Of a DNA stretch of 42,389 bases, positions 3,925-38,703 are shown one piece after another; positions within the stretch are counted from its first letter, which is position 1, and each line of letters begins with the position of its first letter. The DNA is from Candidatus Micrarchaeota archaeon. GTDB taxonomy: Archaea > Micrarchaeota > Micrarchaeia > Norongarragalinales > Norongarragalinaceae. A model generated the notes under the pieces. The model did no database searches, was not told where the DNA came from, and saw nothing but the letters and a program-made list of their open reading frames with translations. The position numbers and the translations under genes were made by a program. The stretch is taken from assembly GCA_964634375.1 (NCBI GenBank), contig CAZWIQ010000003.1, positions 1-42,389 on the forward strand, given 5' to 3'.

Positions 3925-6357
3925 ATGGCAAGCGAAATGAAGAATATTTACTGGTTTGAAGAGTTAGGCAAGGAAAACCTGCTTCAAGCGGGCGGGAAAG
4001 GCGCTAACCTCGGCGAAATGACGCGCGCGGGACTGCCCATCCCCCCGGGATTCATCGTCAGCGTAGGAGCCTACTACCGCGCCATCCGCGAAAACAACTT
4101 GGCTGGCTTCATCGAAGGCAAGTTGCGCAACCTCGACGTTCAAAACGCTGAAGCGCTGCAACGCGCGAGCGACGAAATCAAGGCGGCAATCGAGCGCGCC
4201 CCCGTTCCCGCGGACATCCGCACCGACATCGTGCGCGCCTACAACCGCATGTGCGGCGTAAGCGGGATTCCGAGCGCGAACCAGGAAATCCTCGTCGCGG
4301 TGCGCAGCAGCGCGACCGCCGAAGATTTGCCGACGGCTTCGTTCGCCGGGCAACAGGCGACTTTCCTGAACATGAAAGGCGCGGAACAAGTCGTCGACGC
4401 GGTGCGGCGCTGTTGGGCCTCGCTCTTCGAGGCGCGCGCGATTTACTACCGGAACGAGAACGGTTTTGAACACATGCGCGTTGGCTTGAGCGCCGTCATC
4501 CAAAAAATGATTCAAAGCGAGTCAAGCGGAGTAATGTTCACCGCCGACCCCGTGAGCGGCGACCGCTCGAAAATAATCATTGAAGCTGGGTTCGGGCTCG
4601 GCGAAGCCGTCGTGTCCGGGCAAATAACGCCCGACAACTACGTCGTCGACAAGGAAACGCTCAAGATTCTCGACAAATTCATTTCGCAACAGGAAATGAT
4701 GATTATTCGTTTGCCGAACGGCAAGACGGACCACGCGGACGTTCCAGAAGAAATCCAGGAAAAACAGAAAACGAACGACGACTTCATAGTGCAAATCGCG
4801 AAATTCGGGCGCAACATCGAAAAGCACTACGGTTACCCGCAAGACATCGAGTGGGCGGTAGAGAGAGGGCGCGTTTACATCACGCAAAGCCGCGCGATTA
4901 CGACGATCAAGGGGAAAGGCGAAGAAAGCGCGAAAAGCGAAGCAGCGCAAACGAAGCAAAGTGAAGCCAAGCCAAGCGAAGCCAAACCCCAAAGCGCGGC
5001 AGCAAGCGAAACCAAGGCCGGCGACGCGAAAGATGCGAAAGTAATCCTCAAGGGACTCGGCGCGAGCCCTGGAATCGCGAGCGGCGTCGTCCGCCTCGTA
5101 ACCGACAAAAACCAACTAGGAAAAATCGGGAAAGGCGACGTACTCGTAACCGAGATGACTAGCCCCGACTACGTTCCCGCGATGAAGCGCGCCTCGGCAA
5201 TCGTCACGGACGCGGGCGGAATGACGTGCCACGCCGCGATTGTAAGCCGTGAGCTAGGAATCCCGTGCATCGTTGGAAGCAAGACGGCGACGCGCGTTTT
5301 GAAAGATGGGCAGACGGTTACGGTCGACAGCAAGCGAGGCGTCGTCTACGACGGAAAAATCGCGCTCGAAGCAGAAACCGCGGCTGCAAGCGCTGGCGGA
5401 GCTCAAAGCCAAGCCACGACTATCGCCGCAGGAGGAGCGTATTCAACCGCAACGAAGATTTACGTCAACATAGCAGACGCGACGGTTGCTGAAAAAGTTG
5501 CCGGCAGGGACGTCGACGGAATAGGACTGCTTCGAGCCGAATTCATGATTGCGGGACTAGGGGTTCACCCGAACAAGCTCGCGAAAGACGGACGCGCAAA
5601 CGAGTTCGTCGACATGCTTGCCGAGAATCTCCGCAGAAGTTGCACCGCGTTCGACCCGCGCCCAGTGATTTACCGCGCGAACGACTTCAAGACTAACGAG
5701 TACCGCGGCTTGCCGGGCGGCGAGGAATTCGAGCCCAAGGAAGAAAACCCGATGATTGGTTACCGCGGGTGCGCGCGCTACGTCCGCGATCCGACCGTGT
5801 TCAAGATGGAAATTGAAGCCATCAAGAAAGTCCGCAACGAGTACGGACTCAAAAACTTGTGGCTCATGATTCCGTTCGTGCGAACAGTCGAGGAATTGCG
5901 AGAATGCAAACGCATTTGCGAGGAAAACGGGCTCAAGCGCTCGCGCGACTTCAAATTCGGAATAATGGCTGAAGTTCCGTCGGTTTCGATTGTTCCCGAG
6001 GAATTCTGCAAAGTCGGAATCGACTTCATGTCTATCGGGAGCAACGATTTATGCCAATTAGTGCTCGGCCTGGACCGCGATAATCAAACAATCGCCGACA
6101 GTTTCGACGAGCGCGACCCGGCGGTCGTCACGGCGATGAAAAACATTATTGAGACGTGCCACAAGTACGGAACGAAAGCGTCGATTTGCGGGCAGAGTCC
6201 AAGCACTTACCCTGAAATCGCCGAAGCGCTCGTCCGCTTCGGAATCGACAGCATGTCTGTGAACGTCGACGTCATCGAGAGGACGCGCAAATCGGTTGCG
6301 AGCGTTGAAAAGAAAATCCTGCTCGAGAGAAGCAAAAACGCCGCGGAAAAAGAGTAG
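3925..6357 (+). CDS. ppsA: Phosphoenolpyruvate synthase (pyruvate, water dikinase)
   Basis: N-terminus LGKENLLQAGGKGANLGEM..GLPIPPGF, phospho-His swivel motif GGMTCHAAIVSRELGIPCIVG and a C-terminal PEP-utilizer TIM domain. GAGGTGG lies 5 nt upstream of ATG 3925. Confidence 0.95.
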   Translation: MASEMKNIYWFEELGKENLLQAGGKGANLGEMTRAGLPIPPGFIVSVGAYYRAIRENNLAGFIEGKLRNLDVQNAEALQRASDEIKAAIERAPVPADIRTDIVRAYNRMCGVSGIPSANQEILVAVRSSATAEDLPTASFAGQQATFLNMKGAEQVVDAVRRCWASLFEARAIYYRNENGFEHMRVGLSAVIQKMIQSESSGVMFTADPVSGDRSKIIIEAGFGLGEAVVSGQITPDNYVVDKETLKILDKFISQQEMMIIRLPNGKTDHADVPEEIQEKQKTNDDFIVQIAKFGRNIEKHYGYPQDIEWAVERGRVYITQSRAITTIKGKGEESAKSEAAQTKQSEAKPSEAKPQSAAASETKAGDAKDAKVILKGLGASPGIASGVVRLVTDKNQLGKIGKGDVLVTEMTSPDYVPAMKRASAIVTDAGGMTCHAAIVSRELGIPCIVGSKTATRVLKDGQTVTVDSKRGVVYDGKIALEAETAAASAGGAQSQATTIAAGGAYSTATKIYVNIADATVAEKVAGRDVDGIGLLRAEFMIAGLGVHPNKLAKDGRANEFVDMLAENLRRSCTAFDPRPVIYRANDFKTNEYRGLPGGEEFEPKEENPMIGYRGCARYVRDPTVFKMEIEAIKKVRNEYGLKNLWLMIPFVRTVEELRECKRICEENGLKRSRDFKFGIMAEVPSVSIVPEEFCKVGIDFMSIGSNDLCQLVLGLDRDNQTIADSFDERDPAVVTAMKNIIETCHKYGTKASICGQSPSTYPEIAEALVRFGIDSMSVNVDVIERTRKSVASVEKKILLERSKNAAEKE

Positions 6358-6466
6358 AAACCGAAGACGCCGCGAAACTTGTTTGAACAAGGTTCAGCGG
6401 AGGCTTGGCGGCGCATTGGTTTTAAAGGCGCGCGCAAGTAAGTTTCCTCGCTGGTGGGAAAAAACC

Positions 6467-9259
6467 GTGTCTTCCGAAGCTGAAATCGAAGCCGCTAAAA
6501 AAACCGTCGCAACGCTGGTCGCCCAATTCGACGAAGTTGTCGCTAGCGGGCGGTTGAAAACCTTCAACGAGGAAAACACGAAGCGCGCTTTCATAACGCC
6601 CCTATTCCGAGCCCTCGGCTGGGCCGTCGAAACCGCCGGCGACGAAGTCACGAACGAAGACCGGGTCTCGAAAGGACGCGTCGATTATTCGTTTCGCTTG
6701 AACGGCATACCCAAATTCTTTTTGGAAGCCAAAGCCGCCAGCAAGGAACTCGAAGACAAAGACACCGAGCAAGCGATTAACTACGCTTACTACAAGACGA
6801 CGACTTGGGCAGTCCTCTCAAACTTCCGCACGCTCATAATCTACAACGCGGACTGGAAAGGAAAAGAAGCCAGCGACTTCCGCTTCATCCGCTTCGAATA
6901 CAAGGAATTCCTCGACCGATTCCCGCAACTCTGGCTCCTCTCGAAACCCGCGTTCCAACAAGGATTGCTCGACAAGGAAGCAGCCAACCTCGGCAAAAAA
7001 GACTACCGCCCGAAAGTAGGCGACTTGCTCCTCCAAGAACTAACCAAACAACGCGAAGCCCTCTCCAAAAACATCGTGAAAAACAACGCCAAGCGCGACT
7101 TAAGCGAGGCAGACGTTGACGAAGCAGTCCAACGCATCATCGACCGTCTAATCTTCATTCGAACTACGGAAGACCGCAACATCGAAGAACCCCGCCTCAA
7201 AACCCTCGCGCGCGAATTCGCGGGAGGCAAACGCGGCAAAGTCACTGCCGCGCTCAACGAGATTTACTTGAAGTACGACAAGACTTACAACAGCAAGCTC
7301 TTCACTTTCAAGCAAGAGGACGAAACCCAACGCCACTTGTGCGAAACCCTGGAAATCGACAACGAAACCCTCCTCAGCCTAATCGAAAACTTGATGAAAT
7401 ACGATTTCTCGGCGATTGACGCCGACGTCCTCGGCAACATTTACGAGCAATACTTAAGCCACATCTTGCGAAAGACTGAGAAGCGCGCGAAAGTCGAAAG
7501 CAAGGAAGCCCACCGCAAAGAACAAGGCATTTACTACACGCCGACTTACATCGTGGACTACATCGTGCGCAACACGCTCGGCGAAGCAATCAAAAACAAG
7601 AAGCCCGACGAAGTCGACGAGATTCGCGTTCTCGACATGGCTTGCGGCAGCGGCTCCTTCCTGCTCAAGGCTTTCGACGTTCTCGACGGCTACTACAAGA
7701 CTCACGACAAGCAATACGCGCAGTCCGCCCTTGACACCGCCACCGACGCCGCGAAAGTCACGCGCAAGACGAAGATTCTCCGCAACAACTTGTTTGGAGT
7801 CGACCTGGACCCTAAAGCCGTCGAAATCGCGCAGCTTAACCTGCTCCTCAAAGCCGCGGAGACGAAGCACCGCCTTCCGGACTTGCGTGAGAACGTCAAG
7901 CAGGGGAATTCGCTTATCGACCAAGCTCTGGGGGAGGATGCGCGGGCGCGTGCGTTTGACTGGAAGAAGGAATTCTCTGAAATCGTCGGCACTGGCGGTT
8001 TCGACGTCATCATCGGCAACCCGCCATACGTGAGCGGCTGGAACATGAGTTTAGAATTTCGCGACTGGATAAAAAAATCAGGCGCATATGCAACGGCGGA
8101 CAAGCATTGGGATATTTACGTTTTGTTTCTCGAACGAAGCATTAAACTAATGAAGAATGGCGCGCGGCTTGGAATGATTCTGCCATACTCTTTCCTTAAC
8201 CAAGCGTATGCACAAAAAATAAGAAGAATGATTTTAGACTCCTGTAAAATTCACGCAATAGTCGATTTGTCTGAAATCGATGTTTTTGCTGACGCGACCG
8301 TAAGAAATTGTATAATAATCTTAGAAAAAAACAATAAAACAGAAAACATTGTGACAATAATAAAAGCAAAGACTGCGGGCGGAATCAGCGAAACAATTGA
8401 ACACAAAATATCTCAAAAAACGTTCAACGAAACGCCAGAAAATATGTTCCGCGTCGATTTGCAACCACGCGACATCAAACTTATAGAAAAAATAAAAACC
8501 AAAAGCATAACACTCGATAAAATTGTTTATTCGACTACAGGGGTCGTCCCACACAGTGAAAAGGAAGGAAAGGGAAAGGAGGCATACATCTCGACTCAAA
8601 AAAAGAGTCAGAAGAGCGTTCCGTATATTGAAGGAAAAAATGTAAACAGATACCAAATAGATTACGACGGACGATTTCTCGAATACGACCCGGACATCGT
8701 TTACAGGCCGTCTTTACCAGAGCTGTTGAAACAACCTAAAATTCTAATAAAAAACGTCGTTGGAAAAAATGGAATTACGGCAACTTTTGACGACTTCGGC
8801 TATTTTACTAATGAAACAGTTAATTGTGTGACAACAAAAAATAAAATAGCTGGCGTTGAACGAAAAGACATTAGATTTTCAAAAAATGAGCTAAGTGAAA
8901 GTGAAAAATACGATTTGAAATTCATCTTAGGACTAATCAACTCTAAACTATCTAATTGGGTTTACCGAAAGATGATTAGCGGAGAACTACATTTCTATCC
9001 AAAGGACGTTAGATCGTTACTGGTGTTCGACATCGAAAAAAACCCAAATAAAAAAGAAGTAATTGAAATAGCCGCAGCTACCGATAAAATGCTAAAGCTA
9101 CATAAGAAACTTACTCCGAACACAGACAAGCAAACAGATGAGCGCACGCGGTTGGAGAAGGAAATCGCTGAGACGGATGCTCGGATTGACGACTTGGTTT
9201 TTGATTTGTACGGGTTGACGGCGGAAGAACGCCGAATCATCGAAGAGGCGGTAAAATGA
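6467..9259 (+). CDS. Type IIG restriction-modification enzyme (PD-(D/E)xK nuclease + gamma-class N6-adenine DNA methyltransferase + target-recognition domain)
   Basis: N-terminal nuclease-like GRVDYSF...FFLEAKAAS. MTase motif I is VLDMACGSGSFLL and motif IV is IIGNPPYV. A long C-terminal TRD follows. GTG 6467 is preceded by GGTGGG. The listed 6296-6466 extension overlaps ppsA and is Arg-rich. Confidence 0.85.
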   Translation: MSSEAEIEAAKKTVATLVAQFDEVVASGRLKTFNEENTKRAFITPLFRALGWAVETAGDEVTNEDRVSKGRVDYSFRLNGIPKFFLEAKAASKELEDKDTEQAINYAYYKTTTWAVLSNFRTLIIYNADWKGKEASDFRFIRFEYKEFLDRFPQLWLLSKPAFQQGLLDKEAANLGKKDYRPKVGDLLLQELTKQREALSKNIVKNNAKRDLSEADVDEAVQRIIDRLIFIRTTEDRNIEEPRLKTLAREFAGGKRGKVTAALNEIYLKYDKTYNSKLFTFKQEDETQRHLCETLEIDNETLLSLIENLMKYDFSAIDADVLGNIYEQYLSHILRKTEKRAKVESKEAHRKEQGIYYTPTYIVDYIVRNTLGEAIKNKKPDEVDEIRVLDMACGSGSFLLKAFDVLDGYYKTHDKQYAQSALDTATDAAKVTRKTKILRNNLFGVDLDPKAVEIAQLNLLLKAAETKHRLPDLRENVKQGNSLIDQALGEDARARAFDWKKEFSEIVGTGGFDVIIGNPPYVSGWNMSLEFRDWIKKSGAYATADKHWDIYVLFLERSIKLMKNGARLGMILPYSFLNQAYAQKIRRMILDSCKIHAIVDLSEIDVFADATVRNCIIILEKNNKTENIVTIIKAKTAGGISETIEHKISQKTFNETPENMFRVDLQPRDIKLIEKIKTKSITLDKIVYSTTGVVPHSEKEGKGKEAYISTQKKSQKSVPYIEGKNVNRYQIDYDGRFLEYDPDIVYRPSLPELLKQPKILIKNVVGKNGITATFDDFGYFTNETVNCVTTKNKIAGVERKDIRFSKNELSESEKYDLKFILGLINSKLSNWVYRKMISGELHFYPKDVRSLLVFDIEKNPNKKEVIEIAAATDKMLKLHKKLTPNTDKQTDERTRLEKEIAETDARIDDLVFDLYGLTAEERRIIEEAVK

Positions 9260-10641
9260 CTTTTTCGTTTGCCGACTTGCAGAAGTGGATTACTGAATGG
9301 GAAGGTCCAACGCTGGAGTTCAAGCTAAGGGTCAACGAAGACGCTGGGAACACGATTTCCGCGTTCGCCAACACCTTCGGCGGAACAATCGTTTTTGGGG
9401 TCGAATCCAAAAAAAAAGAATTAACGGGGTTAAGCAACGTCGACGAGGAAAGCCGGCGGCTGCGGCAAATCCTAGATTCCTGCAAGCCAAACCCAAAACC
9501 TGAAATAACCCACATCAAAGGAGAAGGAAAAACGTTTATCGCAGTCAGAGTCGAACAAATTGCTTATTCGCAGACGCCGTGCTTTTTCAAAAAACGCTGT
9601 TTCATAAGGCAAGGAACAACAAACCTAGAACTAGCGGGAGAAGAACTCATCGACTTTTTGAGAAAGCGAGCAATCCTTAATTTTGAGGAATCAAAAACCA
9701 GTGCCAGACTGCACGACTTGGATTTGGAGAAAATCAAGCGTTTTCTGAAGCAAAGGAAAACAAGTTATGAAAACCTAAATGAGGAAGAAACCAAGAGAAT
9801 TCTTGCGGGGCTAAGCGTAGCGAATTACAACGGAGAATTCTTTCTGAAAAACGTTGCGCTTCTTTTTTTCGCTAAAGACCCCCAAAAACTTTTTTCTAAT
9901 TTGGAGGCAAGAGTGGTCAGGTTCAAAGGAACAGAAGCAGAAGTAGGCGCAATCATTTTGGACAAACGCGTTTGCGGCACGATTCCGGAACTAATAAACG
10001 GAACTTACAAGCTTGTATCAGAAAATATTGGAAAAACCTTCAGATTAATCGGACCAGAGAGGAAGGAAATTCTGGACTACCCAGCCGAATCGCTTCGAGA
10101 GGTTATCACGAACTCGTTTGGACACCGGGACTACTTCGAAACAAAAGAAGTTTTAATCGAAATTTTTGAGGACAGACTAAGCATAACCAACCCAGGCGGG
10201 CTCCTACCTGGCCAAAATATTGCTAATTTCGACAAAACACCCCGCCATCGAAACCCAATAACCTATCGGTTGCTTCATGACCTAGGCTTGGGAGAAGGGC
10301 TCGGTCTCGGGGTCAGGTTGATTCGACGGCAATTTCGGGAAACCGGCTTGCCCGACCCAGAATTCTACGACGTTGGCAATGCGTTCCAAGTCGTTTTTTA
10401 CAATCATTCAAGCAAGAAGCCACGCCACGCAGTTGAATTTGAAAACGATAGGCAAAAGCAGGCGTTAGCTTACCTTCAAAAAAACAAGTCGATAAAATCG
10501 GCTGAATTCGCTCGCCTTGCGGGCGTTTCTATCCCAACAGCTCTTAAAGATTTGAAGGAATTGGAAAAGCAGGGCAAAATCAAAAAAATCGGAAAATACA
10601 AGGGGGCAAAATACGAATTGGAGAAACCTATAAAAACATAA
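9256..10641 (+). CDS. Schlafen-type AlbA_2 domain / HATPase_c_4 / C-terminal winged-HTH protein (COG2865-like)
   Basis: EGPTLEFKLRV....ISAFANTFGGTIVFGV is AlbA_2. HRDYFE...LSITNPGGL...RHRNP...GEGLGLGV is the RecG-C/HATPase_c_4-like part. C-terminal HTH is SAEFARLAGVSIPTALKDLKELEKQGKI. An ATGA overlap links it to the RM gene stop. Confidence 0.8.
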   Translation: MTFSFADLQKWITEWEGPTLEFKLRVNEDAGNTISAFANTFGGTIVFGVESKKKELTGLSNVDEESRRLRQILDSCKPNPKPEITHIKGEGKTFIAVRVEQIAYSQTPCFFKKRCFIRQGTTNLELAGEELIDFLRKRAILNFEESKTSARLHDLDLEKIKRFLKQRKTSYENLNEEETKRILAGLSVANYNGEFFLKNVALLFFAKDPQKLFSNLEARVVRFKGTEAEVGAIILDKRVCGTIPELINGTYKLVSENIGKTFRLIGPERKEILDYPAESLREVITNSFGHRDYFETKEVLIEIFEDRLSITNPGGLLPGQNIANFDKTPRHRNPITYRLLHDLGLGEGLGLGVRLIRRQFRETGLPDPEFYDVGNAFQVVFYNHSSKKPRHAVEFENDRQKQALAYLQKNKSIKSAEFARLAGVSIPTALKDLKELEKQGKIKKIGKYKGAKYELEKPIKT

Positions 10642-32488: not shown

Positions 32489-32601
32489 TTTCAAAGCGAA
32501 AATAGCGGCAAGCTAGCAACCCGTTTTTTCGTCGTTTGACGATAAAAAACAGCGGAAAACCGGGTTTTCTGGGTTTCGGGTTTGAACGGAGTTGGTGGAA
32601 A

Positions 32602-35214
32602 TTGAAGTGTCCTTATTGCGGGAATCCGGAAACGAGCGTCGTCGACTCGCGCGACGCTGAAGCCGACGAGAAGACGCGGCGCAGGCGCGAGTGCAAGAAT
32701 TGCGGCAAGCGCTTCACGACTTACGAGGAAGCCGCGCTCGAGTTGTTCGTGCTCAAGAAAAGCGGGAGGCGCGAGCCTTTCGACCGCAAGAAGATTAAAA
32801 ACGGCGTGGAACACGCTTGCTTCAAGCGCCCCGTCTCCGAGGAAAAAATCGATTCGCTAGTCGACGAAGTCGAACGCGAGCTGCGCTCGCGCGACGTCAG
32901 CGAGATTCCGAGCCGCGACATCGGCGAACTCGTGATGGACAAGCTGCGCGGCGTCGACGAAGTCGCTTACATTAACTTCGCGAGCGTTTACAGGCAGTTC
33001 CGCGATTTGACTGCGCTCGAACGCGAAATCAAGGCGCTGCGCGTCGTGCGCGAGGAAAGCGAAGGCGAAGCGCAAGCGAAAGACTCGACTGATTTCATGC
33101 AGCTCATAGTTGAAAGCCCTACGCAAGGCATCGCGCAGCTTTGGGACAGGACGCGAATAACGGAAGCGCTCGTCAAGGAAACGGGGCTCGCGCAAGCAGA
33201 GGCGGAAGACATCGCTCTCGCGGTCGAGCGGCGCTTGTCGGTTTCGGGAATGAAGAGCATCAGCGTGTCGCTGATTCGCGAACTCGTGAACAACGAATTG
33301 TTCGAGCGCGGGCACAAGCGCAAGCTAAGCAAGCAAGAAATTTTGGGAATCGCCGTTTACAACCTCAACCAATTGATTTTCGCGAAGAGCAACGAGAACA
33401 GCAACATCATGGCGAACAACCCCGAGGCGGTGAATCTCGCAATCGCGGAAACCGTGCTGAAACAATACGCGTTGAAGGAAGTTTTTTCGCGGGAAGTAAG
33501 CGAAGCGCACCTCAGCGGAGCAGTCTACCTCCACGACTTGGGTTACATCGTCCGCACGTACTGCTCCGGTCACAGCCCGGAATACATCAAGAAATACGGC
33601 TTGCAGTTGATGAACCTCGCGTCGCACTCTTACCCGGCGAAACACGCCGCGACGCTCACGGGCCACCTCAACACTTTCCTCGCCTCGATGCAGGCGAATT
33701 ACGCGGGCGCGCTCGGGCTCGCTTACCTCAACGTTTTTTACGCGCCGTTGCTCCGCGGCTTGAGTTACGAAGAGTTGAAGCAGCACGCGCAACACCTGAT
33801 TTTCGCGTTCTCGCAAAACGCTTTTTCGCGCGGCTCCCAAACGCTTTTCATCGACATCAACCTGCACTTCGGAGTTCCCGATTATCTCCGCGGCGTGCCC
33901 GCGATTGGCGAGGGAGGAAAATACATGCTGCAGCGGCCGAACGGCGAAGTCGAACGCCTCGACGACGTGCCTCGAGACGCGCAAGGAAAGCTCGTGCAGC
34001 CGAGCGACGCGGCGCGCGACGGGCGCATTCTCACTTACGCGGACTACGAGCGCGAAGCCCAGCAGTTCACGCGCGCGCTCCTCGAAATCGCTCGGAAGGG
34101 CGACAGCGAAGGCAAACCCTTCGCTTTCCCGAAACTAAACTGCCACGTCGACGCCGCGACTTTCGCCGACGCGGCGCAAGACGAGCTCCTGCGCTTCGCT
34201 TGCGGCGTGAGCGCCGCTAACGGCGCGCCTTACTTCATTTTCGACCGGGAGGCGGCAACGCTGAGCCAGTGCTGCCGCTTGAAAACGAAAATCGAGGACC
34301 CGTGGCTGCTCAATCACCCGGAAAGCATTCGGTTCTGCGGATTCCAAATCGTAACGATCAACCTTCCGCAGGCGGCTTACCGCGCCGCGCAAGCAAGCGA
34401 GAAAGTCGGAGCGAAGCCGACCGTGGAAAGCGTCGTGCGCGAAGTCGAGTGGGCGATGGACACCGCGATGAAGGCGCACTTGCAGAAAAGAAAGTTCATC
34501 CAAAAAATCATGAGCAGCCCGGGAACGCCGTTGTGGACTGTCGGCGCGCCTGCCGCTGACGGCAAACCTTACCTCGACCTCGACAAGGCGAGTTACATCA
34601 TCGGCATGATCGGGCTCAACGAGTGCGTGAAAACGATTACGGGGCAAGCGCTTCACGAAAGCGACGCCGCCTTTCGAGTCGGCGTGCGCGTAATCGCGGC
34701 GATGCACTTGAAAGCGAAGGCGCTGGAAGCCGAACACAAGATGAAGGTGGTGCTCGAGGAAACGCCTGCGGAGAGCGCGAGCCTGCGGCTCGCGAGAATC
34801 GACCTCCAACGCTTTCCTCAGTACGCGCGCGGGCTCGTGCGCGGCAACGCTGAAACCGGCGAAGTCTATTATACCAACAGTATTCACTTGCAGGCTGACG
34901 CGCCAGTCGACATCATTGAACGCATTGAAAAGCAAGCGGTCTTCAACAACTTGATCGAAGCCGGCTGCATCACGCACGTATTCCTCGGCGAACAACAGCC
35001 TAGCCCCGAGAGCGTTTACGCGCTCGTGCGCCGCACGTGGGAAAACACCCAGAGCGCGCAAATCGTTGTTTCGCCGGAATTCACCGTCTGCAACGACTGC
35101 GGCGCGGTGAGCCGCGGCTTCAACCGCGATACTGAAGCGCCAGTAAAACAAGCAACGCAGGCAGCGCCAAGCCAAGCGAAGGGCGACGTGGTGTTCGAGA
35201 AAATAACTAGATGA
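32602..35214 (+). CDS. nrdD: Fusion protein: NrdR module (zinc ribbon + ATP-cone) - second ATP-cone - class III (anaerobic) ribonucleoside-triphosphate reductase NrdD core, lacking the glycyl-radical tail
   Basis: (M)KCPYCGNPETSVVDSRDAE...RRRRECKNCGKRFTTYE plus an ATP-cone (FDRKKI...VAYINFASVYRQF) forms the NrdR module. A linker and a second ATP-cone (WDRTRITEAL...) follow, then the NrdD core (GAVYLHDLGY..., ...EFTVCNDCG). TTG 32602 is preceded by GGAGTTGGTGG. Confidence 0.85.
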   Translation: MKCPYCGNPETSVVDSRDAEADEKTRRRRECKNCGKRFTTYEEAALELFVLKKSGRREPFDRKKIKNGVEHACFKRPVSEEKIDSLVDEVERELRSRDVSEIPSRDIGELVMDKLRGVDEVAYINFASVYRQFRDLTALEREIKALRVVREESEGEAQAKDSTDFMQLIVESPTQGIAQLWDRTRITEALVKETGLAQAEAEDIALAVERRLSVSGMKSISVSLIRELVNNELFERGHKRKLSKQEILGIAVYNLNQLIFAKSNENSNIMANNPEAVNLAIAETVLKQYALKEVFSREVSEAHLSGAVYLHDLGYIVRTYCSGHSPEYIKKYGLQLMNLASHSYPAKHAATLTGHLNTFLASMQANYAGALGLAYLNVFYAPLLRGLSYEELKQHAQHLIFAFSQNAFSRGSQTLFIDINLHFGVPDYLRGVPAIGEGGKYMLQRPNGEVERLDDVPRDAQGKLVQPSDAARDGRILTYADYEREAQQFTRALLEIARKGDSEGKPFAFPKLNCHVDAATFADAAQDELLRFACGVSAANGAPYFIFDREAATLSQCCRLKTKIEDPWLLNHPESIRFCGFQIVTINLPQAAYRAAQASEKVGAKPTVESVVREVEWAMDTAMKAHLQKRKFIQKIMSSPGTPLWTVGAPAADGKPYLDLDKASYIIGMIGLNECVKTITGQALHESDAAFRVGVRVIAAMHLKAKALEAEHKMKVVLEETPAESASLRLARIDLQRFPQYARGLVRGNAETGEVYYTNSIHLQADAPVDIIERIEKQAVFNNLIEAGCITHVFLGEQQPSPESVYALVRRTWENTQSAQIVVSPEFTVCNDCGAVSRGFNRDTEAPVKQATQAAPSQAKGDVVFEKITR

Positions 35215-35227
35215 GGTGAAAGCAACA

Positions 35228-35461
35228 ATGACGGAAGAAAAGACAGTTCATGGTCCCCACTGTCCTCACTGCGGCAGCGAAAACGTTTTCGGGATATCGC
35301 GCGTAGTCGGCTACTTCAGCCGAATCAACAACTGGAACAAGAGCAAGACCGCCGAATTCAAGGACAGGCAAAAAGGAAATTACGCCGTCCCGCAAACCGC
35401 GAAAGCGGTGGACGCAGAATTCGACTCGAAAGCGCTGACGCAGAAAGCCAAGTGCGCGTGA
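35228..35461 (+). CDS. Stand-alone glycyl-radical C-terminal piece of NrdD (77 aa)
   Basis: HCPHCGSENVFGISRVVGYFSRINNWNKSKTAEFKDRQ is the second Zn Cys pair plus the RVxGY glycyl-radical motif of class III RNR. GAGGTGA lies 8 nt upstream of ATG 35228. The ORF is in a different frame from the large ORF. Confidence 0.8.
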   Translation: MTEEKTVHGPHCPHCGSENVFGISRVVGYFSRINNWNKSKTAEFKDRQKGNYAVPQTAKAVDAEFDSKALTQKAKCA

Positions 35462-35505: not shown

Positions 35506-35763
35506 ATGCCGAAAGTAAAGATTTTCTGGAAGGAAACTTGCCCGAACTGCCCGGCGGCGAAAGAGTTAGGCAAACGGCTGGCGGCTGAAGGCGCCGTCGT
35601 CGAATTCCTCAACGTCAAGGACGCCGACGGGCTCACGGAAGCCGTGCTTCACGGAGTCATGGCGACGCCGAGCGTCGCCGTCGTCGCGGACGACGGAACG
35701 GAGAAAACCGTGTGGCGCGGCGCCACCCCGAAGCTCGACGAAGTCAAGGAAGCACTCAAGTAA
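35506..35763 (+). CDS. Small glutaredoxin/NrdH-like thioredoxin-fold redoxin
   Basis: KVKIFWKETCPNCPAAKEL...GVMATPSV is a CxxC redoxin with cis-Pro context, 85 aa long. Confidence 0.8.
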   Translation: MPKVKIFWKETCPNCPAAKELGKRLAAEGAVVEFLNVKDADGLTEAVLHGVMATPSVAVVADDGTEKTVWRGATPKLDEVKEALK

Positions 35764-35836: not shown

Positions 35837-36061
35837 TTGGCGCGGAAGGAATTCATTTTTTCGAAGCACTACCGCGAAGACAAGGACATCGACGTAAGCC
35901 TTGCAGTAGACTGCATTCACACGGGAAAAAAGGAACCGGAAGAAGAACCGAACAAATTCAAGGCGCGGAAAAACTACCGGAAAGGCGAGTTAATCGTCGT
36001 TTTCAAGGACTGCGGCGAGTATTTTTTCGTGGTAACCGCTTTTTGGAACGTCAGGAAATGA
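35837..36061 (+). CDS. DUF4258-like putative toxin (74 aa)
   Basis: FIFSKHYREDKDIDVSLAVDCIHTGKK...GELIVVFKDCGEYFFVVTAFW fits the DUF4258 pattern (f.S.H.......I......i..G, then l.VV.....i.VvTay) from memory. TTG start. Confidence 0.45.
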   Translation: MARKEFIFSKHYREDKDIDVSLAVDCIHTGKKEPEEEPNKFKARKNYRKGELIVVFKDCGEYFFVVTAFWNVRK

Positions 36062-36082
36062 GAAAGCAAGGGAGTGATGGGC

Positions 36083-36409
36083 ATGGCTTTGAATCTCGAC
36101 GGAAAAAAGTGTTGCGCGTGCGGCAAAGGCAGGCTCCGCAAGATTCAGGATGAAATCGAACCCGGCATTTTCGTCGAAGCGTTCAAGTGCAGTGAATGCA
36201 ACGAAATCGTTTACCCCCAGCATGTCATGGAAAAAGTGGAGGCGTTGTACCGCGACAAAGCTGCCGAACGCAGTTTAATCAAAGTCGGCGCTAGCTTGGC
36301 GTTCGCGATTCCGAGCGAAATCGTGAAAAAACTGGGGTTGCGTCCGAAGGAAAAAGTTTTCATTACGAGCAAGGGAAACGAAATCATCGCGCGCGTTTCC
36401 CAAGCGTGA
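36083..36409 (+). CDS. Putative antitoxin: MqsA/YgiT-like zinc ribbon fused to an AbrB/SpoVT-type DNA-binding domain
   Basis: CCACGKGRL...FKCSECNEIV, then IKVGASLAFAIPSEIVKKLGLRPKEKVFI. GGGAGTGA lies upstream. Alternative starts are at 36074 and 36077. Confidence 0.55.
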   Translation: MALNLDGKKCCACGKGRLRKIQDEIEPGIFVEAFKCSECNEIVYPQHVMEKVEALYRDKAAERSLIKVGASLAFAIPSEIVKKLGLRPKEKVFITSKGNEIIARVSQA

Positions 36410-36437
36410 AAAACTAGTTTCAACATGGCGACGAATA

Positions 36438-36995
36438 ATGGGTTTGGGTAGCGTTAGAAACGCGGCAGCCATTCTGCGGCAAGAAAAGTACGCGAGCGTA
36501 TTGCGCCTAAGAGACACGGAGATAATACCCCGCGGAAGTTGGCTGGGCATACTCGTTCCAGCAAGAGGATACGAACGCATTTCCAGAGAAGACTTATTGA
36601 GGCCAAGGTGCATCGCTAAAAGAATACCCGCACTGCCGTTAGCGACTGAATTAGGAGACGCTTTAAGGCGAGAAGAATTTGCGCCTATCGTCGAGGTAGG
36701 CAACGAGGCACGCGCGGAAGGACGCATGAGATTCTATCACGAGCTTGTAGCAAAAGAGTTACCTGAAGAAGTTCAAAAAAGAATGAAAAAATTAGGAGAA
36801 GAACAAGAAAAAGCAAGAACACGTTGCGGGCAGTCCACTGGCGATGCGCCTTCACATAAACAGAGTTGGAAAATAGCCGACAGGAATGCAAAGGCGCTAT
36901 TCGCGTTGGCGCAAGACCCGCCCGATTACGAACCTTTGTTGGCTGCGCTTAAAACGCTTACGGCGCGGGCAATGACGGTGAAGGCTAAGAGTTGA
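36438..36995 (+). CDS. Hypothetical protein (185 aa), no recognisable domain
   Basis: The ORF fills the gap between the antitoxin and nrdG on the same strand. It appears lower in GC than the backbone (not counted). Coding status is uncertain. Confidence 0.35.
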   Translation: MGLGSVRNAAAILRQEKYASVLRLRDTEIIPRGSWLGILVPARGYERISREDLLRPRCIAKRIPALPLATELGDALRREEFAPIVEVGNEARAEGRMRFYHELVAKELPEEVQKRMKKLGEEQEKARTRCGQSTGDAPSHKQSWKIADRNAKALFALAQDPPDYEPLLAALKTLTARAMTVKAKS

Positions 36996-37001
36996 ACAAA
37001 C

Positions 37002-37715
37002 ATGCTCGACATCAAAGGATTAATGCCTACGTCGCTAATCGAATACCCCGGCAAAATCGCCGCCGTCGTCTTCTTGAACGGCTGCAACTTCCGTTGCCCC
37101 TTCTGCCAAAACGCGAGCCTCGCCCTCGGCACCGAGCAAGCGCCGTCGATTCCTCGCGAGCAAGTCCTGAACTTTCTCAAAAGCCGCAAGAAGTGGCTCG
37201 ACGGAGTCGCGATAACGGGAGGCGAACCAACGCTCGCGGGAAGCGAGTTAATCGACTTCATCAAGGAAGTCAAGGCGCTCGGCTTCGCGGTCGAACTCGA
37301 GACGAACGGCTCCAGCCCCGAACTGCTTCACGAACTCATGAAAAACCGTCTCGTCGATTACTACGCGATGGACTACAAGGCGCCGCTCGACGATTACGAC
37401 CGCGTCACTGGAACGAAAGTCGATAAGGATAAAATCAAGGAAAGCGCGAAAATGCTGATTCGGGAACAAGAAAGCGCTTGCTTTGATTACGAGTTCCGCG
37501 CAACCGTCGTACCAAGGCTGTTCGACGAGCGCACCGCGTTGCGCGTAGCGCAAGAACTCAAAGGCGCGCGCCGATTTTTCCTGCAGCAGTTTCAAGCGCG
37601 CGATTGCCTCGACGCCTCGTTCAACAAGCTCGCCGCGTTTCCGCCGAAGCGCCTGCAGGAATTCGCGCAAATCATGAAGCCTTTCATCGCGGAAGTCAAA
37701 ACGCGCGGAACCTAA
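37002..37715 (+). CDS. nrdG: Anaerobic ribonucleotide reductase activating protein (radical SAM)
   Basis: SLIEYPGKIAAVVFLNGCNFRCPFCQN (CxxxCxxC), GVAITGGEPTL, and an archaeal NrdG-type length and layout. Confidence 0.9.
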   Translation: MLDIKGLMPTSLIEYPGKIAAVVFLNGCNFRCPFCQNASLALGTEQAPSIPREQVLNFLKSRKKWLDGVAITGGEPTLAGSELIDFIKEVKALGFAVELETNGSSPELLHELMKNRLVDYYAMDYKAPLDDYDRVTGTKVDKDKIKESAKMLIREQESACFDYEFRATVVPRLFDERTALRVAQELKGARRFFLQQFQARDCLDASFNKLAAFPPKRLQEFAQIMKPFIAEVKTRGT

Positions 37716-37788
37716 TTTTCTTTCAGATACAATTCACTGGAAGGCTACCTCCGAAAAACAATTGAATTCGCTCGGCATAACCAATCAC

Positions 37789-38703
37789 ATGACTGCAGCA
37801 ATCAAAAATTATGACGACCCGAATTACCTAATCGAACAACTTGAAACAAAAAACTATTTGGAAATAGCGAGAGAAAACAAGGTCGGCAAATCCACAATCC
37901 AACGAAAGCTTAACGCGTTTGGTTTGACGAGAAAAACAAGCGATTGGGCTCCTGAAGAAATAAGGTGCCTAACCAGAAATTATGAATCCGCGGCAATCCA
38001 CAAGCTGTTCCCAGACAGAACAAAAAGTTCCGTTTATCATGAAGCCAATCGCATTGGAGTAAGTAAAGATTCTTGGGGACGGGAGTATAGCGTCAACGAA
38101 AACTTCTTCGAACACCGGAATAGAGAATCCGCGTATTTTCTGGGTTGGATGTACAGCGACGGAAATGTTTCGAAAGACTACAAACGATTTGGGCTTCACC
38201 TCCAAACGGGAGATATAGAAATTCTCAGAAAAATGAAGCGAGCCCTCAAAAGCGAACACAAAATCAAGACCTACAAAAACTCCGCTACGTTTTACGTTCA
38301 CGATAAAAAAATGTGCAGAAGTTTAGCAAAATTGGGTTGCGGACCTCGAAAAACCTTGAAGATACGACTGCCAAAAATTCCGAAACGCTTTCTGAACCAT
38401 TTCGTTAGGGGCTATTTTGACGGAGATGGCAGCATCATGTTTAATTACCCGAACACGATAAAAATTAGGTTCGTAGGATACGAAAAATTTTTGGCGGATT
38501 TAGCCGAAAAAATACGGAAACGGCTCAGAATCCCAACACCGAAAATAACGAAAAGTAATAAGGGAAACGTCTGGAGCGTCAACTACTACGGGGATAACGC
38601 CAGAAAAATTTGTTTTTGGATGTACTCCGGCGCGGGAAATCTCGTTTTGAAAAGAAAGAAAAAGAGATTCGAAAAACACATGAGAATAAGGGATGCTAAA
38701 TGA
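37789..38703 (+). CDS. Free-standing double-motif LAGLIDADG homing endonuclease with an N-terminal HTH
   Basis: The two LAGLIDADG motifs are YFLGWMYSDGNV and FVRGYFDGDGSI. The HTH is IARENKVGKSTIQRKLNAFGL. A hand count gives 23/60 GC in 38281-38340. An ATGA overlap links it to pth2. Confidence 0.8.
   Translation: MTAAIKNYDDPNYLIEQLETKNYLEIARENKVGKSTIQRKLNAFGLTRKTSDWAPEEIRCLTRNYESAAIHKLFPDRTKSSVYHEANRIGVSKDSWGREYSVNENFFEHRNRESAYFLGWMYSDGNVSKDYKRFGLHLQTGDIEILRKMKRALKSEHKIKTYKNSATFYVHDKKMCRSLAKLGCGPRKTLKIRLPKIPKRFLNHFVRGYFDGDGSIMFNYPNTIKIRFVGYEKFLADLAEKIRKRLRIPTPKITKSNKGNVWSVNYYGDNARKICFWMYSGAGNLVLKRKKKRFEKHMRIRDAK

Follow-up and report, generated by a model that had tools for sequence, protein, structure and literature searches.

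A probable two-chain class III ribonucleotide reductase of a DPANN archaeon, with the radical glycine on a small separate subunit and a zinc site that may span both chains

Can the radical-bearing domain of a class III ribonucleotide reductase (RNR) be a protein of its own? This question is raised by a stretch of 42,389 nucleotides (nt), hereafter the window, from a Candidatus Micrarchaeota archaeon (GenBank assembly GCA_964634375.1, contig CAZWIQ010000003.1), in which a long open reading frame (ORF) for the catalytic chain of such an enzyme, NrdD, ends ahead of the glycyl-radical loop and a separate ORF of 77 codons supplies it. In characterised glycyl-radical enzymes the radical glycine lies on the catalytic chain, and radical domains acting in trans are known only from GrcA/YfiD, the repair proteins of pyruvate formate-lyase (PFL) (PMC13450708, PMC8683613). 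A preliminary description of the locus had started from the premise that characterised class III RNRs carry both cysteine pairs of the C-terminal zinc site and the radical glycine on a single chain; this agrees with the published enzyme (PMC11226230) and with the solved chains that we matched (8p23, 4coi, 4u3e), in every one of which the region equivalent to the small ORF is C-terminal on the catalytic chain. From sequence comparison and a structure model we consider it likely, with good confidence, that the locus encodes a functional and obligate two-chain class III RNR (NrdD3-like) of a DPANN archaeon related to Micrarchaeota/Norongarragalinales, in which a Zn(Cys)4 ribbon would be formed across the chains and the radical subunit would be activated by NrdG.

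Two adjacent genes together cover the class III reductase profile

The two genes and their elements are as follows (L and P numbers denote the loci and homologous proteins of this analysis).

32536..35214, plus strand: large subunit of the class III RNR, 892 residues from TTG 32536; the gene-caller start at 32602 gives 870 residues (P0121)
35089..35100, plus strand: first CxxC, Cys852-Asn-Asp-Cys855, with Cys codons 35089-35091 and 35098-35100; proposed large-chain half of the Zn(Cys)4 site
35101..35211, plus strand: tail of the large subunit, 37 residues past the first CxxC; low-complexity spacer, predicted to be disordered
35213..35219, plus strand: Shine-Dalgarno site GAGGTGA, overlapping the TGA of the large gene, 8 nt before ATG 35228
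35228..35461, plus strand: small subunit, 77 residues, +1 frame relative to the large ORF; stop codon TGA 35459-35461
35261-35272, plus strand: second CxxC, Cys12/Cys15 of the small subunit, codons 35261-35263 and 35270-35272
35309-35311, plus strand: radical glycine, Gly28 of the RVVGY hairpin

The large ORF encodes an NrdR-type zinc ribbon (residues 23-64) and an ATP-cone (residues 71-157), followed by the catalytic barrel with its QCCR finger loop (LSQCCRLK; Cys579/Cys580), the first zinc knuckle only, and the low-complexity tail (PF22811, PF03477 and PF13597 matches). No glycyl-radical (RxxGY) loop is present on the large ORF. Its product terminates in ...SPEFTVCNDCGAVSRGFNRDTEAPVKQATQAAPSQAKGDVVFEKITR, or, with residues numbered, ...SPEFTVC(852)NDC(855)GAVSRGFNRD-TEAPVKQATQAAPSQAKGDVVFEKITR, directly before the stop codon TGA 35212-35214. 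The 77-residue product starts MTEEKTVHGPHCPHCGSENVFGISRVVGYFSRINNWNKSKTAEFKDRQKGNY... and reads MTEEKTVHGPHC(12)PHC(15)GSENVFGISRVVG(28)YFSRINNWNKSKTAEFKDRQKGNY... in numbered form; 3' of the radical hairpin follow a helix, NWNKSKTAEFKDRQKGNY, and a C-terminal extension ending KCA. The preliminary description had reported a large ORF ending with the first CxxC and a low-complexity tail, beginning its interval at 35089, which is the first Cys codon, and a 77-residue ORF in another frame with GAGGTGA 8 nt before ATG 35228, a second CxxC and an RVxGY loop; both are exact to the base. Overlap of the Shine-Dalgarno site with the stop codon of the large gene suggests translational coupling, and the two separate, co-oriented cistrons are probably coupled in this way.

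Both ORFs together span the whole NRDD family profile, which is cut cleanly in two. The large ORF matches positions 1-517 of the 562 positions of Pfam NRDD (PF13597; E 2e-108) and the small ORF positions 522-561 (E 2e-11); of the 581 positions of NCBIfam TIGR02487 they match 1-537 and 541-580, respectively. At E <= 0.01 the small ORF hit only PF13597 and generic zinc-ribbon models, and the Pfam scan gave no match of the small ORF to PF01228, the PFL-type Gly_radical family. In Prevotella copri NrdD (8p23), the alignment with the large ORF extends to residue 688 and that with the small ORF covers residues 693-735; the mapping relies on the full-length alignment, as the C-terminal 98 residues of the large ORF, when searched on their own against PDB sequences, gave no match. 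Because the glycyl radical domain of the P. copri enzyme comprises residues 676-739, with a structural zinc site and then the loop with Gly711 (PMC11226230), the cut interrupts the radical domain and separates its two zinc-binding Cys pairs.

Judged by fold, profile, finger loop and operon, the enzyme is a class III RNR that lacks one defining feature of NrdD, a radical domain on the catalytic chain; the loop sits on the 77-residue ORF instead. NrdD is defined by a ten-stranded alpha/beta barrel whose finger-loop Cys turns into the thiyl radical; in addition to the PF13597 match, the finger-loop CCR is invariant and the structure model described below matches the class III structures 8p2s, 4u3e and 1h7a. 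The QCCR finger loop fits the signature of NrdD3 (QCCR/A, with no Met upstream), which is thought not to use formate (PMC9669993), and the assignment to NrdD3 agrees with a second feature, the thioredoxin-like gene in the operon. The N-terminal ~150 residues of the large ORF match NrdR crystal structures (E 1e-32) and TIGR00244 (NrdR) above its cut-off. Several homologues of the large ORF bear the NCBI name 'transcriptional regulator NrdR', which can be explained by the large subunit passing the NrdR model but falling just below the NrdD cut-off of TIGR02487 (316.4 versus 326.35 bits).

The NrdR-like module that opens the large subunit is complete, with zinc ribbon and ATP-cone (window 32602-33050). 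At the other end of the chain, the last residues of the tail (window 35185-35211) follow the pattern (D/S)V(V/I)FEKI(T/A)(R/K) up to the stop codon and are kept among close relatives after a variable low-complexity spacer. An A(A/T)DGG motif occurs in the tails of more distant split relatives and in the linkers of fused forms.

The split is the majority state among archaeal relatives

Of the 120 proteins most similar to the large ORF (50-100% identity), 93 have no RxxGY loop and stop 9-95 residues past the first CxxC. The other 27 are fused and consist at this point of CxxC, 13-33 residues, CxxC, 12 residues and then the glycine; the distance from the first Cys of the second CxxC to the glycine is 16 residues in all 27 of these archaeal forms and equally so in the small ORF of the window (Cys12 to Gly28). 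The split is, on these alignments, the majority state of the whole archaeal clade, which goes beyond what the preliminary description had foreseen. The break in split relatives is without exception located between the Cys pairs, where it had also been placed in the window, and this break point is fixed across a large archaeal clade.

A genome scan with one genome per species yielded 80 loci, and 32 of them make up, with the window and one Asgard contig (L090), a set of 34 split loci. The two-gene arrangement of the window recurs in 33 of these 34, with a CxxC- and RVVGY-encoding gene downstream on the same strand, and is thus a conserved arrangement and no indel. Across the 33 linked loci the gap from stop codon to ATG ranges from -17 to +518 nt, the small gene is in frame 0, +1 or +2 relative to the large gene (6, 10 and 17 loci), and a GGAGG/GAGGTG site precedes the small gene in nearly all. 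The large genes of the 34 loci stop with TGA (17), TAA (15) or TAG (2). Many small proteins start 2-4 residues before their CxxC, and many large ones end ...VSRGYDRD at the stop codon. The remaining locus, L034 from Nanoarchaeia, has the truncated large gene and, over the ~6.8 kb upstream and 10 kb downstream that it covers, no small gene. Recurrence of the arrangement in dozens of independent assemblies makes chance an implausible explanation.

Searches with the small ORF returned short NRDD-domain proteins only, of 44-131 residues, from Woese-, Nano-, Aenigm- and Micrarchaeota, Tiddalikarchaeum, Asgard archaea, Bathyarchaeota and Planctomycetes. A profile of the archaeal small proteins had 2,236 matches at E <= 0.001 among 1.84 billion cluster representatives (50% identity), and about 121 of the best 150 were shorter than 160 residues. 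The closest relatives of the window, L010 and L011, have large subunits with 86% protein identity and are likewise split; the intergenic lengths in the window, L010 and L011 are 13, 30-66 (depending on the choice of in-frame ATG) and 7 nt, the junction DNA differs among the three, and one relative has a spacer insertion of ~59 alignment columns. The ratio of nonsynonymous to synonymous substitution rates (dN/dS) of the small ORF compared with L010 is 0.08 at a dS of about 1.1, which indicates strong purifying selection.

Some loci depart from the simple two-gene layout. ORFs of 167 and 102 residues stand between large and small genes in two Woesearchaeota-like loci (L018:4368-4871 and L013:12459-12767), and the second of these loci has a partial duplicate of the small-subunit C-terminus just downstream (L013:12979-13089). 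Gene calling divides the reductase of Candidatus Tiddalikarchaeum into three ORFs in a row, with 519, 280 and 59 residues (L002:3600-6180, identical to L032), which is due either to a further break in the barrel or to an assembly frameshift. In three truncated large-subunit homologues of 1323-1383 residues (P0159, P0160, P0165), the barrel harbours intein and LAGLIDADG domains. These sequences indicate that the large-subunit family is indeed invaded by mobile elements, at a site other than the split point.

Conservation of the zinc ligands and the structure model

The first CxxC (Cys852/Cys855) is invariant in aligned large subunits, split and fused alike (two alignments, n = 25 and n = 40), and is present in 91 of the 93 truncated homologues. 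Its counterpart, the second CxxC (Cys12/Cys15), shows no variation across an alignment of 31 small proteins, and none of the 68 archaeal-type small proteins lacks it. Further invariant residues of the small subunit are S17, G22, R25-Y29, W36, N37, K40, E43, R47, G50 and Y52, and the barrel has more than 130 invariant positions in split and fused members, the finger-loop CCR among them. Both half-sites and the radical loop are, by this pattern, under purifying selection.

The Cys ligands add up to four in all three architectures: fused forms have 4+0, archaeal split forms 2+2, and a bacterial split form described below has 4+0 with a Cys-free partner. Four ligands irrespective of how the parts are distributed are what a single Zn(Cys)4 site predicts, and the archaeal ribbon would then consist of one knuckle per chain. 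A zinc site shared between the chains is therefore probable; the suggestion of the preliminary description that it is assembled from both chains gains support from the conservation of the first pair in the large and of the second pair in the small proteins.

We modelled the two chains of the window with AlphaFold2, joined via their natural tails and using an alignment of fused and split homologues. The joined-chain model has a mean predicted local distance difference test (pLDDT) score of 76 and a predicted template modelling (pTM) score of 0.76. Its residues 697-729, which correspond to residues 867-892 of the large and 1-7 of the small chain, have pLDDT <50 and form a disordered junction. 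The small-chain part is predicted with pLDDT 77-83 and places Gly28 at the tip of a beta-hairpin that is followed by a helix. The top Foldseek matches are class III RNR structures with target-normalised template modelling scores of 0.63-0.77 (0.69-0.77 for 8p2s, 4u3e and 1h7a).

Further cysteines occur at the very C-terminus of some small subunits: 17 of 68 archaeal sequences have one to three Cys in the last eight residues (KCA, KCC, CTCD, CECK; e.g., window 35440-35458, P0026, P0051, L013, L018). Fused enzymes of anammox bacteria (Brocadia, L068/L076) terminate in ESCxTKC. Class I and II RNRs have redox cysteines at their C-terminus, of which these Cys of small subunits and anammox fusions are reminiscent.

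Proposed mechanism and alternative explanations

In the two-chain enzyme that we propose, the large chain would contribute the NrdR-type zinc ribbon and ATP-cone as a regulatory module, the QCCR barrel and the first knuckle, and the 77-residue chain the second knuckle and the radical hairpin. The two knuckles would jointly bind one Zn2+ as a cross-chain Zn(Cys)4 ribbon, which would tether the small chain while the hairpin enters the barrel and brings Gly28 beside the finger-loop Cys. NrdG and S-adenosylmethionine would take the hydrogen of Gly28 from a small chain that is free or has left the barrel by swinging out, and the thioredoxin-like protein would re-reduce the active site. As the large chain is without any radical loop, the small chain would be obligatory and no optional spare.

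It is unlikely, but the best of the alternatives, that the two chains cooperate without sharing the zinc site. The small chain would then dock by insertion of the hairpin and by its C-terminal helix, and the knuckles would have separate roles, such as binding metal with other ligands or redox chemistry. The Cys-free radical proteins of bacteria must dock in another way, about a quarter of the archaeal small proteins have additional C-terminal Cys that could be redox-active, and the geometry of a shared metal site is derived from sequence and not from measured distances, all of which is compatible with separate knuckles. Against them stand the constant total of four Cys across three architectures and the spacing of 16 from CxxC to glycine, which is fixed in the 27 fused forms and the same in the small ORF of the window; moreover, we know of no stable metal site formed by a lone CxxC knuckle.

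It is very improbable that the large protein has ceased to be a reductase and acts as a repressor of the NrdR kind, with its NrdD part degenerated into a sensor domain and the small ORF being a leftover or having another role. The match of its N-terminus to NrdR structures, the TIGR00244 score above cut-off and the NrdR names at NCBI would suit a regulator. A degenerate sensor, however, is at odds with the more than 130 invariant barrel positions including the finger-loop CCR, with an operon that retains activase and thioredoxin, and with a small ORF that has lost no residue of the radical loop; the N-terminal module, moreover, is shared by fused members of the clade.

Even less credible is the production of a single polypeptide by programmed frameshifting, readthrough, other recoding or trans-splicing of a split intein. 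The genes are adjacent, in many relatives they overlap by 1-17 nt, and inteins occur in the family (P0159, P0160, P0165). A recoding mechanism is nevertheless rejected by the variable frames (0, +1 and +2 are all seen) and gaps (-17 to +518 nt, at some loci with an ORF in between), by the Shine-Dalgarno site of its own ahead of nearly every small gene, and by the use of TGA, TAA and TAG as stop codons of the large genes; an unlinked small gene in an Asgard assembly and the large gene of L034 without a small gene in its locus speak against a single product as well. In a split intein, an N-intein of ~100 residues ends the first product, and a C-intein of ~35 residues, with HN and then Cys, Ser or Thr, starts the second. 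Split inteins were rejected since the tails are only 9-95 residues long, of low complexity and not conserved, many small proteins begin 2-4 residues before CxxC, and the motifs are missing; the shortest forms, which end ...VSRGYDRD at the stop codon and begin MAKCxxCGS, have no room for intein halves. Pfam detected no intein on the large ORF, the small ORF or five of six neighbouring ORFs, and the sixth, downstream of nrdG, has a LAGLIDADG_3 domain. Insertion of a homing endonuclease was considered as the origin of the split; the intervening ORFs of L018 (167 residues) and L013 (102 residues) had no Pfam match, and nothing follows from them.

The weakest alternative, an assembly indel or a decaying nrdD, could appeal to a single window from an uncultured organism, the low-complexity tail of the large ORF and the different frames of the two ORFs, but we reject it as next to impossible because the comparative data already contradict it, with 93 of 120 homologues and 34 split loci, which come from many phyla and were put together by many assemblers, broken at the same point, the split retained in relatives with an 86% identical large subunit despite different junction DNA, and purifying selection on the small ORF (dN/dS 0.08) with invariant catalytic and zinc residues.

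Several observations count against the two-chain reductase as we propose it, or against our account of its history. All relatives are metagenome-assembled genomes (MAGs) of uncultured organisms. Since its alignment includes fused homologues, the joined-chain model is biased. There is no other RNR within the 42 kb window, and the genome may encode one elsewhere. In a neighbour-joining tree of 195 barrel cores, a method too crude for counting events, fused forms are scattered at >=6 places (at least six) among split ones, and the tree fixes neither the direction nor the number of fissions and fusions. The same tree sets a bacterial clade, in which most members are fused, apart from an archaeal clade of predominantly split members, and has loop-less bacterial forms at no fewer than four places. 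Fission and re-fusion have probably both occurred, since fused forms are interspersed and the long linkers of fused archaeal forms share A(A/T)DGG with the tails of split ones.

Operon and genomic neighbourhood

The gene order in the window is M50 peptidase, large subunit, small subunit, thioredoxin-like protein and NrdG, the last two being located as follows.

35506..35763, plus strand: thioredoxin-like protein, 85 residues, with a CPNC motif; PF13192 and a weak TIGR00411 match
37002..37715, plus strand: NrdG-type radical-SAM (S-adenosylmethionine) activase, 237 residues; TIGR02495 (NrdG2) 193.5 bits versus a cut-off of 131.15; PF04055 and PF13353

The NrdG2 score above cut-off identifies a nearby dedicated activase as is expected for a class III RNR, and the thioredoxin-like protein is the probable reductant of this NrdD3-type enzyme. 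The gene order of the window is also present in a Norongarragalinales MAG (L001/L011); the position of the thioredoxin-like gene is equal in L001/L011 and the Asgard locus L090, and the activase has the same operon position in L001, L002 and L090. The operon is hence shared by Norongarragalinales, Tiddalikarchaeum and one Asgard MAG.

Between the thioredoxin-like gene and nrdG of the window, three ORFs at 35837-36995 are inserted relative to the syntenic Norongarragalinales locus. They encode 74 residues (no matches), 111 residues (zinc ribbon and MazE/AbrB-like antitoxin domain) and 185 residues (no matches), and may represent a toxin-antitoxin cassette. A free-standing ORF of 313 residues with a LAGLIDADG_3 domain of the homing-endonuclease type (37762-38703) lies directly 3' of nrdG, outside any gene. 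The window as a whole is a segment of an archaeal chromosome, encoding phosphoenolpyruvate synthase, RLI/ABCE1, CDC48 and a topoisomerase. At 6296-10641 it has a fused type IIG-like restriction-modification enzyme (Eco57I/N6_Mtase/TaqI_C, 987 residues) followed by a Schlafen/AlbA_2 and HATPase_c_4 protein, which is probably a small defence island.

Additional copies and a cysteine-free bacterial variant

The preliminary description had also envisaged the small subunit as exchangeable. This is plausible from the gene content of an Asgard assembly, GCA_011366235.1. Its contig VIKO01000219 (L090) encodes a truncated NrdD of 806 residues, a radical subunit of 82 residues (L090:6478-6726), a redoxin and a radical-SAM activase, and contig VIKO01000220 encodes a second, unlinked radical subunit of 66 residues with CxxC that is 70% identical over the core (L008:6001-6201). 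The gene for the latter sits among unrelated genes, between Roadblock/LC7-type genes. The occurrence of an operon copy and an unlinked paralogue in one assembly lends some support to exchangeability; the paralogue could be a spare copy, and an error in binning is also possible.

Bacteria show another distribution of the parts. Eight bacterial NrdDs (L055, L059, L060, L063, L071, L075, L077, L081) keep both Cys pairs and have lost the RxxGY loop. Free-standing bacterial radical proteins of 99-131 residues have the loop, no cysteines (50 of 50) and an unrelated N-terminal domain. They carry the loop HMTRVVGYFSR...NWNKSK and come from Planctomycetota and other bacteria (L063:11362-11750, L003-L007, L091-L093); their genes are mostly unlinked to nrdD, and one group follows a fur gene. 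At L063 the gene for a loop-less NrdD adjoins one for a Cys-free radical protein, and the adjacency at this single locus is the basis on which Cys-free radical proteins appear to pair with NrdDs that keep both Cys pairs. Co-occurrence of a Planctomycete radical protein and a loop-less NrdD in one genome was not found, as GCA_021205245.1 and GCA_020861085.1 coincide with none of the loci. The N-terminal domain of the bacterial proteins is modelled as an alpha/beta domain with pLDDT of about 90 over residues 1-70, and a fold search with it returned no PDB match with E <1.

Discussion

The reductase of the window resembles canonical single-chain NrdD with its activase NrdG, as known from phage T4, Escherichia coli, Thermotoga maritima, P. 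copri and S. thermophilus, and in particular NrdD3, the thioredoxin/NrdH-dependent type of Methanosarcina barkeri. It has the same barrel fold and family profile, in total the same four Cys ligands and RVxGY loop, an NrdG2 activase and a thioredoxin-like gene in its operon, and the QCCR motif of NrdD3. Unlike these enzymes, the archaeal split forms have the second Cys pair and the radical glycine on a separate protein of 47-95 residues, and the large subunit of the window has a full NrdR-type zinc ribbon ahead of its ATP-cone.

As a small stand-alone radical-loop protein that would be activated by a radical-SAM enzyme and insert into the barrel of a large partner, the 77-residue chain is similar to GrcA/YfiD of E. 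coli and Y06I of phage T4. GrcA is, however, an optional repair part, whose PFL keeps a radical domain of its own that GrcA replaces once oxygen has cleaved it, and it belongs to the PFL-type Gly_radical family. The small chain of the window would be obligatory and carry half a zinc site; it is of the NrdD type (PF13597), falls outside the GrcA/YfiD families (PF01228, IPR011140), and its partner is without an RxxGY loop. The radical glycine is the site at which oxygen cuts glycyl-radical proteins (PMC8683613, PMC12288474). If it sits on a chain of its own, oxygen damage would cost only a replaceable subunit of 5-9 kDa, such that the enzyme would carry its own spare part. A review of 2026 knows spare-part proteins only for formate lyases (PMC13450708), and the possibility of spare parts for other glycyl-radical enzymes was raised there and in 2021 (PMC13450708, PMC8683613).

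The nearest precedent for a divided reductase is the split class II enzyme NrdJa/NrdJb of Pseudomonas aeruginosa and Thermus phage phiYS40, in which a C-terminal Cys-rich zinc-finger module is encoded on the adjacent gene and works in trans (PMC9669993, PMC4520616). It differs in that it is B12-dependent, its module supplies reducing equivalents and not the radical cofactor, and the break is outside any metal site. Phage nrdD genes in pieces, such as the intron-containing nrdD of T4 and that of Aeromonas phage phiAS4, and nrdA split by mobE in Aeh1, also result in consecutive ORFs, but owe them to introns, inteins and homing endonucleases at varied sites in individual phages (PMC3653736). The archaeal split, in contrast, has no element between the genes in the window and most relatives, a fixed break, and has been kept across archaeal phyla. 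The searchable full-text literature, outside of which are subscription-only papers and the RNRdb website, contained no description of a split NrdD with a separate radical domain; the search found only phage splits by introns or endonucleases, split NrdJ, and Tn7 attachment at nrdD.

It is tempting to extend the finding to a general proposal, which we put forward as possible, short of probable. Many DPANN, Asgard and Bathyarchaeia archaea would have a single RNR, normally built with a separately encoded, replaceable radical subunit of 5-9 kDa that is held on a cross-chain Zn(Cys)4 ribbon, and the unlinked Asgard copies together with an independently evolved Cys-free version in Planctomycetota and other bacteria would constitute the first spare-part or exchange system for a glycyl-radical enzyme beyond PFL. 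Under this proposal, the NrdR/ATP-cone module at the N-terminus might regulate the enzyme by letting the radical subunit in or out.

If true, an obligate two-chain class III RNR would be a natural answer to the spare-part question, given for the enzyme that makes the DNA precursors of strict anaerobes. It would also provide a ready-made means to study the exit of a radical domain from the barrel to its activase and its return, a step that is hard to trap in single-chain enzymes, as well as an example of a structural zinc ribbon assembled over two polypeptides. The arrangement is, by the homologues compared, widespread and currently mis-annotated. With the large subunit named NrdR and the small subunit often 'hypothetical', metabolic reconstructions of DPANN and Asgard archaea may wrongly report that ribonucleotide reduction is missing.

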